From IMG/VR virus record IMGVR_UViG_2563366942_000013: a DNA stretch of 10,458 bases. One strand, 5' to 3'. The DNA comes from a virus (taxonomy: Duplodnaviria; Heunggongvirae; Uroviricota; Caudoviricetes). The notes under the pieces are model-generated. The model saw nothing but the letters and a program-made list of their open reading frames with translations, did no database searches and was not told where the DNA came from. Below are positions 2,620 to 9,119 of the stretch, one piece after another. Within the stretch, counting starts at the first letter, position 1. Each line of letters opens with the position of its first letter. The translations under genes were made by a program, and so were the position numbers.

Positions 2620-3210
2620 ATGTCTCGAATTTTTGCTTACTGTCGGATATCAACGCTGGATCAGACCACCGAAAATCAACGCCGGGAAATCGAAAGTGCA
2701 GGTTTTAAAATCAAACCTCAGCAAATAATCGAAGAACACATTAGCGGCTCAGCAGCAACCAGTGAGCGTCCTGGTTTTAACCGGTTGCTTGCTCGCCTGA
2801 AATGTGGTGATCAATTGATTGTGACAAAACTGGATCGCCTTGGTTGTAATGCAATGGATATCAGGAAAACAGTGGAACAACTGACCGAAACAGGTATCAG
2901 AGTGCATTGCTTAGCATTGGGGGGCATTGACCTGACCAGTCCAACAGGAAAAATGATGATGCAAGTAATTTCAGCAGTCGCTGAATTTGAACGAGACCTT
3001 TTACTTGAACGCACTCATTCCGGGATAGTAAGAGCCCGGGGCGCAGGGAAACGTTTTGGTCGACCACCTGTGTTAAATGAAGAACAGAAACAGGTGGTAT
3101 TCGAACGGATTAAGTCAGGTGTAAGTATAAGTGCCATTGCCCGGGAATTCAAAACCTCGCGGCAAACCATTTTAAGAGCCAAAGCAAAACTTCAGACACC
3201 TGACATATAA
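2620..3210 (+). CDS. pinQ: Serine recombinase / DNA invertase (Pin/Gin/Hin/Cin family)
   Basis: 196 aa; N-terminal resolvase/invertase catalytic motifs (YCRISTLDQ with active-site Ser, [10 protein letters not shown]) and C-terminal helix-turn-helix ([18 protein letters not shown]). Size and context match PinQ/PinR of Qin/Rac-type prophages. Confidence 0.9.
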
Positions 3211-3307: not shown

Positions 3308-3427
3308 CTACGGCAGTGCTGGCCATTCAATATCCTGTGCAGTTGACGTATCAACACGGTTCAGCAACACCCGATACTTCTTCCAGGCTTCCCGCAACGA
3401 GGTTTCTTCCTCCGTTGCATATACAGC
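3308..3427 (-). pseudogene. 3-prime remnant (39 codons) of a tail fibre assembly gene (tfa)
   Basis: Minus-strand frame translates [39 protein letters not shown] then stop (3308-3310); this matches the conserved Tfa C-terminal motif ([16 protein letters not shown]...IEWP) as recalled from lambda Tfa. An in-frame TGA lies immediately upstream (3428-3430) and there is no start codon. Confidence 0.6.
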
Positions 3428-3428
3428 T

Positions 3429-3431
3429 CAC
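3429..3431. repeat. Target-site duplication (CAC), left copy
   Basis: CAC immediately outside both IS termini (3429-3431 and 4742-4744); 3-bp duplications are typical of IS3-family transposition. Confidence 0.6.
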
Positions 3432-3455
3432 TGAACCGCCCCGGGTTTCCTGGAG
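3432..3455. repeat. IS terminal inverted repeat (orfB-proximal end)
   Basis: TGAACCGCCCCGGGTTTCCTGGAG; partner at 4718-4741 in inverted orientation. Confidence 0.8.
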
Positions 3456-3473
3456 AGTATTTTATCTGTGAAC

Positions 3474-4364
3474 TCAGGCTGCCAGATCATCGTTTCCGAT
3501 GGAAGCATAATAAGCTTTTTCTGCTTCTGCCGGAGGAGTATGGCCCAGCCTTTCCAGCAATCGTCGATTGTTATACCAGTCCACCCACGTGAGTGTGGCC
3601 AGTTCCACTTCTGCACGGTTTTTCCAGCTCTTACGGTGTATTACCTCCGCTTTGTAAAGACCATTGATGCTCTCCGCCATCGCGTTGTCATACGAGTCGC
3701 CTGTACTTCCTGTTGATGCCAGTAATCCGGCTTCCTTAAGCCGCTGTGTGTAGGCCAGCGATACATACTGAGAACCTTTATCACTGTGATGGACCGTGCC
3801 GGACGGTCGACGGGCCCATAACGCCTGCTCCAGTGCATCCAGCACGAATGTCGTCTCCATGGACGATGAGACCCGCCACCCCACAATGTATCCGGCAAAC
3901 ACATCAATGATGAACGCCACATAGACGAAGCCCTGCCATGTGCTGACGTAAGTAAAATCAGCCACCCACAGCTGGTCAGGTCGTTCTGCCACGAACTGAC
4001 GGTTTACGCGGTCGCCTGCGGCAACGGCTTTCCGGCTGATGGTCGTACGGACCTTTTTACCCCGGAGAACACCGGCAAGTCCCATAACCGCCATGAGACG
4101 TGCCACAGTGCATCTGGCCACTCTGATACCTTCCCGTAACAACTGACGCCAGACTTTACGCACACCGTATACCTTGTGATTTTCATCGTATACGCGCTGT
4201 ATCTCTTTCTTCAGCCAGTCATCGCGCTGCGCACGGGCACTGCGTTTATCCGGATGATGTCGCTGTTGCTGACAGTGGTAATACGTTGACGGGGCAATAT
4301 GCAGTTCGCTGCATAGCGGTCCGACCCCGTACTGCTCACGCAGCTTATCCAGCAGTGGCATCAT
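3474..4364 (-). CDS. IS3-family transposase OrfB (DDE catalytic domain, 296 aa), normally expressed as OrfAB fusion by -1 frameshift
   Basis: DDE-type motifs (WVADFTYV..., [25 protein letters not shown]); ATG overlaps the orfA stop (ATGA) in the -1 frame. Confidence 0.9.
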
Positions 4365-4372
4365 TTTTTCCA
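4361..4372 (-). other. Putative programmed -1 ribosomal frameshift window (A6 run at orfA/orfB overlap)
   Basis: Minus strand reads TGG AAA AAA TGA with orfB ATG overlapping the stop; the A-run is a plausible slippery site by analogy with other IS3-family elements. Exact heptamer not verified. Confidence 0.45.
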
Positions 4373-4687
4373 GAGGCGGTCGAACTCCGCCTTCGCAAAA
4401 TAAGCGGAAGCCTGGCGAAGGATATCGTTACTGCGGCGCAGTTCACGATTTTCACGCTCCAGCTCTTTCAGACGCTGACGTTCAGCGGTGGTGAGCCCTC
4501 CATCACCGCCCCCGGTATCCCGCTCATGCTGGCGAACCCAGACACGCAGAGTCTCCGGCGTACAGCCAATCTTTGGAGCAATGGAACAAATTGTCGCCCA
4601 TTGTGAGTCATATTCGCCCTGACTTTCCAGAACCATACGGACTGCCCGTTGACGGACTTCAGGGGAAAAACGAGTATTTTTAGTCAT
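4361..4687 (-). CDS. IS3-family transposase OrfA (DNA-binding subunit, 108 aa)
   Basis: [53 protein letters not shown]... (HTH plus leucine-zipper-like region), recalled as characteristic of IS629/IS1203 OrfA. Confidence 0.9.
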
Positions 4688-4717
4688 CCTGTTTACCTCT
4701 TTCTCAGGAAGTTTAGT

Positions 4718-4741
4718 CTCCAGGATTCCCGGGGCGGTTCA
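4718..4741. repeat. IS terminal inverted repeat (orfA-proximal end)
   Basis: CTCCAGGATTCCCGGGGCGGTTCA, reverse complement of the 3432-3455 repeat with 2 mismatches. Confidence 0.8.
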
Positions 4742-4744
4742 CAC
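4742..4744. repeat. Target-site duplication (CAC), right copy
   Basis: See left copy. Confidence 0.6.
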
Positions 4745-4750
4745 CTTTTT

Positions 4751-5044
4751 TCACCCACGATTAACCAACAGCCAGACCAGCAGACACGCCACCACCGGCA
4801 CAGCAAAATCCATCAGGCTTGCCACATCCCACGCACGCGGATCAAAACCGCCCCACCACGGCATATTCATACGCTTGCCATGCCCGAACATTTCAATCCA
4901 GCGATATTCTGCCTGGGTATGTTCACGCGCAATGAAGAACGTACAACCAGCTATCGCCCCGTAAGCCCAGTTTCCGGTAAAAAGACCAACCAGTACCTGC
5001 GCAGCCACAGCACAAAGTGCATGAAGGAAAGGTGTTATATCCAT
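4751..5044 (-). CDS. Small integral membrane protein of unknown function (97 aa)
   Basis: Perfect Shine-Dalgarno AGGAGG 4 nt upstream of ATG (reverse complement of 5049-5054); two to three hydrophobic segments (FLHALCAVAAQVLVGLF, FAVPVVACLLVWLLV). Last gene of the tight minus-strand operon; stop is 6 bp from the IS target duplication. Confidence 0.55.
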   Translation of the reverse strand: MDITPFLHALCAVAAQVLVGLFTGNWAYGAIAGCTFFIAREHTQAEYRWIEMFGHGKRMNMPWWGGFDPRAWDVASLMDFAVPVVACLLVWLLVNRG

Positions 5045-6050: not shown

Positions 6051-6913
6051 TAGATTGACTCCCCCATCTGAGCATCAGTCAATGCCTTGTGCCAAATACG
6101 CAGATTTCGAACGTGTCCAAATAGGTGACGGTTGCCGGATGATGATTGACCACCAATATTAATGAAGCCTCCTGTATATTTGTGTTTTTTATAAGGAGAA
6201 ACTACCTTAGCACCAATATTACCGTTAACCACAACACACAATTCTCGACTTTCTGTGAATCTAAAGCCGATAATGCTTTTTCTCTCTGGTCGTTCTATAA
6301 CGCTTTTATATTCTATTTTAGTGCCTTTACCATTTGTAATGATTGCGCGTGCTCCCAAAGATGTATACCCCAAATACATATAACTTTCATCTGCAATTTC
6401 AGTTGTATCTCCCGTAGTGGAAATATTAAGAATACGTGCGCTACCTTCTTTGTTTGGCGATTCATCCCAATTGGTATTAACTTCTGCTAATGAACTAATA
6501 GCGGGATTGCACCAATTTAGAGAAATGGGGACCGTTACAATATCGCTGGCGCGTGTTACAGGGGATGCGCCTGTTATAATAAACGATGAAGCGCATGCCC
6601 CACCTTCAACTTGAGGGGTCGCAATATAAATATAATCATCCGCGCCAGTGCCCACTCCTTTTGCCGGGGCATACTGAACCATTCCACCTATCATATTTTC
6701 TGTATCAAGTGCCTTAATTGTCGCCTCAAAAAAGATCCATTTGCTTGCTTCATCTTTAACAGCCCTTGCAGTAATGCGATTAGCGGCACCACCCGTCTTA
6801 TCAATAGATAAATCTGTCGTATTTAAGTAAGCGTCACCTAAGAATGTGTAGGTAGAACCATCATAGTTTTCAAATCGTAATCGGCATCTTAAATTTGGAG
6901 TGCCACTTTGCAC
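6050..6913 (-). CDS. LamG/concanavalin-A-like lectin-domain protein; probably the distal receptor-binding part of the side tail fibre (287 codons, GTG-initiated as drawn)
   Basis: C-terminus shows LamG-type pattern (VVVNGNIGAKVV...GGFINIGGQSSSGNRHLFGHVRNLRIWHKALTDAQM). In the same frame as stf, separated by a single TGA (6941-6943) and 9 sense codons; no ATG and only a weak RBS at the GTG. Confidence 0.6.
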   Translation of the reverse strand: MQSGTPNLRCRLRFENYDGSTYTFLGDAYLNTTDLSIDKTGGAANRITARAVKDEASKWIFFEATIKALDTENMIGGMVQYAPAKGVGTGADDYIYIATPQVEGGACASSFIITGASPVTRASDIVTVPISLNWCNPAISSLAEVNTNWDESPNKEGSARILNISTTGDTTEIADESYMYLGYTSLGARAIITNGKGTKIEYKSVIERPERKSIIGFRFTESRELCVVVNGNIGAKVVSPYKKHKYTGGFINIGGQSSSGNRHLFGHVRNLRIWHKALTDAQMGESI

Positions 6914-6940: not shown

Positions 6941-8455
6941 TCAGCCTGTTACATCAAAACCTTTACTGCCGGAAACGGTTACTATGTTAATCGCTGAAAT
7001 TTGCCCTACCATTTCTGGTTTTAATGTAAATTTTGCGTACTGGAATCCGAAATCATCTACACCTGATGCACTTAAGATCATATTTGACGACTTGTTCCAT
7101 TTAGTCGGATTTGTTGAATTGATTAGCAGGTTAGTTCTTTGCCCCTCAATAAGCAGGCCATCACGTTCAAATCGTGGCTCGTCAATGGCAGCCTCTGTCA
7201 GCACACCAGATTTATTAATGTAAGTTGCTTTCGATGCGCGTTTAAACTTTACAATCTTGTCGCCAGGCATTGTTATTTCATCGTCGCCAATAACAATTTT
7301 TTTATATGATGGCGAAAAGCCCGTAATCATATCCAGTGAATCATTAAACGGTATCCACACATCAGGCAGTGGCTGTAAGACATATTTATACGGCTCTGCT
7401 GCCTGACTTGCATACTCTCTGGCTGCGTCTTCACTTGCTTTAGCTGCTGTCTGGCTTGCTGCCGATGCTTTCGCCGAGTTCGCCGCTGCAGTCTCGCTTG
7501 TCTTTGCATTGGTTTCACTGGTTTTTGCTGCTTTTTGACTGTTGGCTGATGCAGTGGCAGAAGCAGCCGCCGCGCTTGCAGAACTGGCTGCGGCACTCTC
7601 GCTTTGGGCCGCTGCATCCTGACTGCTTTTCGCCGCAGTTTCACTGGCTTTGGCATTCGTTTCGCTGGTCTTCGCTGCCGTCTGGCTGGACTTTGCGTTA
7701 GTTTCACTCGTCTTCGCAGCTTTCTGGCTGTTAGCCGCAGCAGTTGCTGATCCAGCTGCTGAAGTCGCAGAACCGGCTGCCGCGCTCTCGCTTTGGGCTG
7801 CTGAAACCTGGCTGTTTTTTGCTGCAGTTTCACTGGCTTTAGCATTCGTTTCGCTGGTCTTCGCTGCCGTCTGGCTGGACTTTGCGTTGGTTTCGCTTGT
7901 CGTTGCGGCTGTCTCGCTATTTTTCGCGTTGGTTTCTGATTTTTTAGCTGCTGTTGCGGAGTTTGCCGATGCAGTCTGCGAGGCCGCTGCCGCCTGTGCG
8001 CTGTTAGCTGCATTCGTTTCTGAGGTTTTCGCCGCGTTCTTCGATGATGCCGCTGCAGTTTCGGATTTCTTTGCCGCCGCTGCGCTCTGAGAGGCGGCTT
8101 CAGCGTTGCGTGCCGCTTCTTCCACCATTTCCTCAAAACGACGCAATGCCTCCGGCATGACATCATCTTCCGTCATGGCACCGAGAAAATCATTCAGCGT
8201 ACCTGGTCTGGAACCTTCATAGACGGTAATGGTTCCGGCATGTGAAGGCGGAAAACCTTCAACCAGCAGGGTGACGCTGTACTGGCCATACTCAACATCC
8301 ATGCTGTAACGCCCGGCTTCATCCGGATTTTCAGAGGCCACTGTGTTGACCAGTACCGTGGTGCTGTTACGCTTTGCCTTCAGTTGAATAGTGCAGTTCT
8401 GTATTGGTTTTCCCGCACCATCTTTCAGCACACCTGAGATTTTTACTGCTGCCAT
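6941..8455 (-). CDS. stf: Side tail fibre protein Stf (lambda-like N-terminus, Ser/Ala/Thr-rich repeat region, distinct distal segment)
   Basis: MAAVKISGVLKDGAGKPIQNCTIQLKAKRNSTTVLVNTVASENPDEAGRYSMDVEYGQYSV... closely resembles the lambda/Rac Stf N-terminus as recalled. GGAG Shine-Dalgarno 5 nt upstream of ATG at 8455 (track start at GTG 8461 is probably an over-extension). Ends at TGA 6941-6943. Confidence 0.85.
   Translation of the reverse strand: MAAVKISGVLKDGAGKPIQNCTIQLKAKRNSTTVLVNTVASENPDEAGRYSMDVEYGQYSVTLLVEGFPPSHAGTITVYEGSRPGTLNDFLGAMTEDDVMPEALRRFEEMVEEAARNAEAASQSAAAAKKSETAAASSKNAAKTSETNAANSAQAAAASQTASANSATAAKKSETNAKNSETAATTSETNAKSSQTAAKTSETNAKASETAAKNSQVSAAQSESAAAGSATSAAGSATAAANSQKAAKTSETNAKSSQTAAKTSETNAKASETAAKSSQDAAAQSESAAASSASAAAASATASANSQKAAKTSETNAKTSETAAANSAKASAASQTAAKASEDAAREYASQAAEPYKYVLQPLPDVWIPFNDSLDMITGFSPSYKKIVIGDDEITMPGDKIVKFKRASKATYINKSGVLTEAAIDEPRFERDGLLIEGQRTNLLINSTNPTKWNKSSNMILSASGVDDFGFQYAKFTLKPEMVGQISAINIVTVSGSKGFDVTG
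7596..7973. repeat. Imperfect tandem direct repeats inside stf (189-bp spacing, about 115-bp conserved core, nested 42-bp/14-aa sub-repeats)
   Basis: CTCTCGCTTTGGGC... recurs at 7596 and 7785; protein shows repeated AAKTSETNAKxSxT units. More degenerate copies extend to about 7440-8060. Confidence 0.6.
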
Positions 8456-8519: not shown

Positions 8520-9119
8520 TCAGAATTTATAACCGACACCAACGATGAAACCGTCAGTGCGCCAGTCACCACTGCCAGAACCTTCATAAGCAATATCAAT
8601 GGCCACGGATTCGGTCGGGTTAAACTGCACGCCAGCCCCCCACGCCAGAGACGTGTTGCTGTGGCGATCGTCATCACTTCCGGTCAGCACATCGTGCGTT
8701 TTCCCCTTGTTGTCAGTTACGCGGAGATAATCCCCGGAGAACGTCGAAACACGGCTGTAAGCCACACCTGCCATCGCATAAGCACTGAACCATTCATTCA
8801 CGCGTACAGATGGCCCCGCCATCATGCTGAACCAGCGGTTACGCACTGAATCTTCATGCCAGCGGGTATCGCTGTAATGCGTTTTTTGCTCACCTTTGGC
8901 ATTGGCATAACTGAATGACGTCACCAGCCCCAGCGTGTCCGTAAATTCATAACGGTATTTCACGTTAATGCCCTTCAGGTCATCACTGCCTGGCATATCA
9001 GTATGGGTTTGAAGATACCCGGCGCTTAGTGTGGACTGATGCTCTGCTGCGCTCGCTGACGTACCAGCAGCAACCAGCCAGACTACTGCGGACAGAATAA
9101 CAGCACATAATTTACGCAT
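8520..9119 (-). CDS. lom: Lom/Ail/PagC-family outer-membrane protein (prophage moron)
   Basis: 199 aa with signal peptide (MRKLCAVILSAVVWLVAAGTSASA) and C-terminus DIAYEGSGSGDWRTDGFIVGVGYKF matching lambda Lom as recalled; GAGAGG RBS upstream; location between J and stf as in lambda. Confidence 0.9.
   Translation of the reverse strand: MRKLCAVILSAVVWLVAAGTSASAAEHQSTLSAGYLQTHTDMPGSDDLKGINVKYRYEFTDTLGLVTSFSYANAKGEQKTHYSDTRWHEDSVRNRWFSMMAGPSVRVNEWFSAYAMAGVAYSRVSTFSGDYLRVTDNKGKTHDVLTGSDDDRHSNTSLAWGAGVQFNPTESVAIDIAYEGSGSGDWRTDGFIVGVGYKF

Follow-up and report, generated by a model that had tools for sequence, protein, structure and literature searches.

A full-length IS629 element in a non-coding spacer of a decaying Qin-type prophage of Escherichia coli KTE36

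The locus and its source

The analyzed window, a stretch of 10,458 bp, originates from scaffold KE136762.1 of E. coli KTE36 (assembly GCA_000407965.1), which contains it as an exact match; the truncated Stf protein encoded in it (6941..8455) is carried by a single record, namely this same scaffold. The host prophage is a defective, decaying Qin-type prophage of KTE36. The scaffold is a gapped draft, and some caution is due for repeats in assemblies of this kind. A scaffold gap of 4755 Ns adjoins the right end of the window (10458 and beyond), and hence the apparent 423-aa fragment of the J gene was cut by the assembly rather than by biology. A literature search returned no paper on KTE36.

The usual C-terminus of stf and tfa are replaced in this prophage by a module of three genes, encoding proteins of 93 aa, 234 aa (with the Peptidase_S74 chaperone domain), and 97 aa. 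The neighboring tfa gene is cut down to a remnant of 37 codons (3308–3418, minus strand) that matches only the C-termini of PHROG tail-fiber assembly proteins (E = 1e-10 to 1e-13), and the pinQ gene for a serine invertase of 196 aa (2620–3210, plus strand) is intact. The insertion sequence considered here is flanked by the following two features.

3308..3418, minus strand: 3′ remnant of a tail-fiber assembly gene of the tfaQ type, a PGAP pseudogene in GABEEC10, CE10, and MS 21-1
4751..5044, minus strand: final gene of the replacement tail-fiber module; its 97-aa product (phrog_1443) has unknown function

Anatomy of the element

The element itself and its target-site duplication consist of the following parts.

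3432..4741, minus strand (transposase genes): IS629, IS3 family, 1310 bp, from sequence reading, with one mismatch to the element in LC567824
3429..3431, no strand: left copy of the target-site duplication, CAC, from direct sequence reading and empty-site alleles with a single CAC
4742..4744, no strand: right copy of the target-site duplication, CAC, from direct sequence reading and the empty-site comparison
4716..4741, minus strand: left inverted repeat (IRL), the end upstream of orfA; the transposase strand reads TGAACCGCCCCGGGAATCCTGGAGAC
3432..3457, plus strand: right inverted repeat (IRR), TGAACCGCCCCGGGTTTCCTGGAGAG when read inward, equal to IRL at 23 of 26 positions
4361..4687, minus strand: orfA, 108 aa, helix-turn-helix DNA-binding protein (Pfam HTH_Tnp_1, E = 6e-13)
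3474..4364, minus strand: orfB, 296 aa, in the -1 frame relative to orfA, with the catalytic DDE domain (Pfam HTH_21, rve, rve_3)

The first-pass annotation described the stretch 3429–4744 as a complete insertion sequence with both inverted repeats and both ORFs, and these coordinates are exact, covering the element together with its two CAC copies. The outer sequences of the element are TGAACCGCCCCGGG... and ...CCCGGGGCGGTTCA, so that the ends read TGAACC...GGTTCA (TG...CA). The repeats TGAACCGCCCCGGGTTTCCTGGAGAG and TGAACCGCCCCGGGAATCCTGGAGAC agree at all 14 positions of the tips, in addition to the overall match of 23/26. In a repeat search, the arms 3432–3472 and 4701–4741 formed the top inverted pair of the region, and no long inverted repeat besides the IS ends was detected between 2500 and 8600.

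The stop codon of orfA and the start codon of orfB overlap as ATGA, placing orfB in the -1 frame, and no stop interrupts the orfB frame from window position 4427 onward. The exact orfA protein is encoded in at least 1000 contigs. In OrfB, the rve domain (E = 4.8e-28 in Pfam) contains the DD(35)E signature, formed by D136, D195, and E231, with K238 at position +7 after the glutamate.

Members of the IS3 family are approximately 1.2–1.55 kb long and have imperfect inverted repeats of the form 5′-TG...CA-3′ and two partly overlapping ORFs. In these elements orfB is in the -1 frame, the OrfAB protein is produced by programmed frameshifting, and the DD(35)E (rve) domain has a lysine or arginine at +7. 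The length, TG...CA repeats, ORF layout, DD(35)E signature, and short target duplication of the window element all agree with this family, and, judged from its sequence, the element is structurally complete.

Predicted frameshift signal and OrfAB fusion

Two further features are situated in the region where the two ORFs meet.

4397..4400, minus strand: U_UU.U tetramer, predicted site of -1 programmed frameshifting; the OrfAB fusion expected from a shift here equals an exact NCBI protein
4290..4406, minus strand: ALIL (apical loop-internal loop) pseudoknot, predicted frameshift stimulator (Rfam RF01497)

In the orfA frame, the codons UAU_UUU_GCG hold the U_UU.U tetramer, which is situated 5 bases upstream of the first stem-loop of the pseudoknot. 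The class to which such tetramers belong is one of the three that shift most readily, and it is frequent in IS3-family elements (PMC4066793). When the entire window was scanned with Rfam, the pseudoknot was the sole match above the gathering score (120.2 bits, threshold 50, E = 1.7e-31), and the full model (1–117) was covered. Its stem-loop 1 (4391..4375) and stem-loop 2 (4330..4290) were both seen in a single-sequence fold. The apical loop of stem-loop 1, GUUCGA (4385..4380), could form base pairs with UCGGAC (4324..4319) in the internal loop of stem-loop 2, and the predicted helix has six pairs, one of them G-U. Such pairing between a loop and an internal loop defines ALIL stimulators and was first demonstrated for IS3411 (PMC5009743).

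The OrfAB fusion predicted for a shift at U_UU.U is 404 aa long (...AYF|...). It is identical to the NCBI protein “IS3 family transposase,” found in 258 contigs, and scores 371 bits against NCBIfam NF033516 (cut-off 160), matching profile positions 1–369 of 369. As another candidate, a shift at the A6 run near the orfA stop codon (GGAAAAAATGA) was considered and rejected, as the resulting fusion protein has no database record; it is also disfavored by the location of ALIL stem-loop 1 upstream of the A6 run.

Identity of the element and its copies elsewhere

IS629 was first found in Shigella sonnei and is plentiful in E. coli O157:H7. The best match to the window element in a phage collection is in the Stx2a phage Stx2_499 (LC567824), with 1309 of 1310 positions identical. 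The element there is 1310 bp long, carries the depositors' label “insertion sequence: IS3 family IS629,” and is flanked by a CCAG duplication; the internal offsets of OrfA and OrfB are equal in the two elements. This agrees with the initial description of the insertion as IS629-like. Names within the 90% cluster of OrfB include “IS629 transposase OrfB” and “IS3-like element IS629 family transposase.” The element is best named IS629, an assignment that follows the depositor-annotated match (99.9%) and the cluster names and not an ISfinder reference.

Copies of 1310 bp with 100% identity are present in at least 12 E. coli plasmids, and full-length copies with 99.9–100% identity occur at unrelated chromosomal sites in complete E. 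coli genomes. The presence of identical copies at many sites points to recent movement of the exact 1310-bp sequence.

Comparison with known IS629 elements yielded no structural difference: the length of 1310 bp, the ORF offsets, and the target duplication of 3–4 bp are shared. Relative to IS629 generally, the window copy differs only by its insertion site, which no other searched genome shares, and its non-O157 host. IS629 duplicates 3–4 bp and follows no target consensus, and of its copies in O157, 62% are located inside prophages (PMC3271280); prophage DNA, the preferred location of IS629 in that study, also harbors the window copy. IS1203/IS1203v and IS3411 are isoforms of IS629 (PMC3271280), and their architecture is the same as that of the window element. 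Three published subtypes of IS629 are 4–5% apart (PMC3271280). Copies labeled by PGAP as “IS1203 family” are about 98% identical to the left-junction query, which combines the tfa-remnant flank and the left end of the IS.

Similarly to the window element, IS911, IS3, and IS2 have ORFs in the 0 and -1 frames, a frameshifted OrfAB, and a DDE transposase. Copy-out-paste-in transposition via a circle is known from the models for these three elements, and by homology the window element would move in the same way. The frameshift signals differ: IS911 has the heptamer A_AAA_AAG and a stem-loop, whereas the window element has the U_UU.U tetramer and the ALIL pseudoknot.

Insertion site

The IS target is in the middle of an 18-bp spacer between the tfa remnant and the 97-aa gene, and the insertion breaks no ORF. 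The stop codon of the 97-aa gene (TGA, 4753..4751) is separated from the right CAC by the 6-bp gap 4745–4750, exactly the distance given in the first-pass annotation. The claim that the element sits precisely at the junction of the module and the remnant is correct insofar as the insertion occurred in the spacer between them, but not at the level of the breakpoint base, as the homology to K-12-type tfaQ and the pseudogene called by PGAP both end at approximately 3418/3419 and the IS target is about 10–12 bp from this breakpoint.

An in-frame stop ahead of the remnant at the restored junction was also noted initially, and it does exist: the TGA at 3430..3428 (minus strand) is present with or without the IS. 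It had served as an argument that the IS arrived after the module replacement. This logic is weak on its own, since the TGA belongs to the remnant side and is left unchanged by the IS; the relative timing is decided by the empty-site alleles described below.

The pinQ gene (2620..3210, plus strand) converges on the same 18-bp spacer. The most likely consequence of the insertion is none at all, i.e., it is neutral. The IS is co-oriented with the tail-fiber operon and located directly behind it, and no terminator-like sites were found in the IS flanks, including the 9-bp gap between the operon and the IS. It is conceivable, if very improbable, that late prophage transcription could read into the IS, raise the level of transposase, and thereby couple IS629 movement to prophage induction, or that the IS alters antisense transcription over pinQ.

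Empty-site alleles and the target duplication

A match of 3-bp flanks would arise by chance alone with a probability of about 1/64. Removal of the IS together with one CAC copy yields a restored window of 9145 bp, which is gap-free and collinear with GABEEC10 at 159 mismatches, with identity around the insertion site. Among the 5426 complete E. coli genomes, 927 have an unbroken copy of the restored 300-bp junction, and the copy in strain 746 matches it at 100% identity. For the flanking backbone, the nearest complete genome is that of MS 21-1, a strain from human colon, in which the first 6050 bp of the restored window contain a single mismatch and the site contains a single CAC. As GABEEC10 and MS 21-1 both have one CAC in the empty site, the CAC copies flanking the IS are a true target-site duplication, as had been proposed.

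The exact empty junction was also identified in the species representative of Escherichia ruysiae (NZ_CABVLQ010000001.1), where the locus is collinear at 96.6% over ydfJ, pinQ, the tfa remnant, and the 97-aa gene. Given that E. ruysiae carries both the arrangement and the empty junction, the module replacement would be old or else exchanged between species. The uninterrupted junction in 927 E. coli genomes and in E. ruysiae indicates that the junction of the module and the remnant is much older than the IS insertion, and this establishes the proposed order of the two events.

In contrast to the empty site, the junction with the IS is absent from all 5426 complete E. coli genomes, and a junction 34-mer was not found in GTDB species representatives or JGI metagenomes. 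A few full-coverage matches to the junction query in complete E. coli genomes consist of two pieces several hundred bp apart and hence were rejected. CE10, which like N32 had 90% coverage and at first resembled the same allele, was rejected because its IS629 is situated inside pinQ and has a GTC duplication of its own.

Order of events and other insertions

The stf gene of the window is split by a TGA nonsense codon at 6943..6941 (minus strand), which corresponds to GGA in GABEEC10. Thus, the single ORF of 801 aa in GABEEC10 is represented in the window by pieces of 504 aa and 287 aa. The same stf TGA is carried by MS 21-1. As MS 21-1 combines this TGA with an empty site, the nonsense mutation preceded the IS insertion. 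The reconstructed order is the module replacement, followed by the stf nonsense mutation, followed by the insertion of IS629 in the KTE36 lineage.

The mismatches of the window to GABEEC10 and MS 21-1 are clustered at window positions of approximately 7360–7550 and 8560–9110 (6051–6231 and 7255–7797 in the restored sequence), which belong to the Ala/Ser/Thr-rich repeats of stf and to lom, and elsewhere the locus hardly differs from MS 21-1. This clustering suggests local recombination or repeat shuffling. The stf repeat region is marked by PGAP as broken in CE10 and ECOCN22.

Further insertions were observed in the same prophage remnant of other strains. In CE10 (O7:K1), the independent IS629 in pinQ is located at the equivalent of window positions 2977–2979, with a 3-bp GTC duplication and 7 mismatches relative to the element in the window. 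ECOCN22 has an unrelated IS3-family element within the 234-aa gene with the tail-fiber domain. In MS 21-1, lom contains an IS3-family element interrupted in turn by a group II intron (ltrA), and a deletion has removed the tail genes as far as FI. Two more strains with the same prophage module, OZ546925 and SCU-172, carry IS1A. Mobile DNA has landed in this prophage remnant repeatedly.

Transposition competence and alternative explanations

The best explanation, to which we assign a probability of about 0.95, is that a full-length IS629 recently entered the 18-bp non-coding spacer of a Qin-type prophage in the KTE36 lineage, duplicating CAC, after both the formation of the junction and the stf nonsense mutation, with a likely neutral outcome.

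The copy itself is probably transposition-competent. According to the established model for the IS3 family, a small fraction of ribosomes would shift frame and produce the OrfAB transposase; OrfAB would then generate a circular copy of the element, and, as in other members of the family, the circle would be pasted in elsewhere with a duplication of 3–4 bp.

Alternatively, the copy may be intact in appearance yet silent, a fixed passenger lacking expression or host factors. IS911 and IS2 have a strong promoter at the circle junction; a simple scan of the modeled circle junction of the window element revealed no clear sigma-70 promoter, and this agrees with a silent copy, as does the normally very low rate of IS3-family transposition caused by the frameshift requirement. 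On the other hand, the exact 1310-bp sequence resides at many unrelated sites, the coding and cis elements are all unbroken, and the insertion is young, with 1 mismatch in 6 kb to the empty-site relative. We consider a silent copy unlikely.

That the IS was misplaced while the draft KTE36 scaffold was built is highly implausible. IS copies are classic sites of misassembly, and this scaffold is a draft with a large N gap nearby, but both IS junctions are within continuous sequence, and a misjoin would not yield flanks perfectly collinear with empty-site genomes together with an exact 3-bp duplication. Finally, the hypothesis of an old insertion, with empty sites arising by precise excision, e.g., via the IS-excision enhancer IEE, for which IEE-dependent precise excision of IS629 has been documented (bioRxiv 10.1101/2023.06.07.543989), can be practically dismissed, as the site is empty in 927 genomes and E. 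ruysiae and occupied in no other genome among those searched, and parsimony strongly favors a single recent gain over hundreds of clean losses.

Host background and implications

IS629 is present in 22–25 copies per O157:H7 genome and absent from K-12 (PMC3271280; bioRxiv 10.1101/2023.06.07.543989). The first-pass annotation took the element as a hint of an O157- or Shigella-type host, and this did not hold: the source is E. coli KTE36, and its nearest relative is MS 21-1 from human colon. Matches to the IS were found in 4258 of the 5426 complete E. coli genomes (near full-length in 3043, with a median of 4 places per genome), in a collection that left out Shigella; the KTE36 record itself is named E. 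coli. As IS629-type elements are present in most complete E. coli genomes, one copy says little about the lineage. The closest loci carry no O157 label (MS 21-1, SCU-172, MSB1_4I, CE10 of serotype O7:K1, and an O102:H6 strain), and the nearest relatives of KTE36 are human commensal or extra-intestinal strains. Hence, a single IS629 copy is no sign of an O157 or Shigella background.

The insertion of IS629 described here is ordinary, its biology is already known, and it is of little importance beyond annotation. At that, the gain of IS629 after the shared stf nonsense mutation provides a clean, datable strain marker of the KTE36 lineage, and the locus is a further case of a decaying Qin-type prophage that accumulates IS elements.
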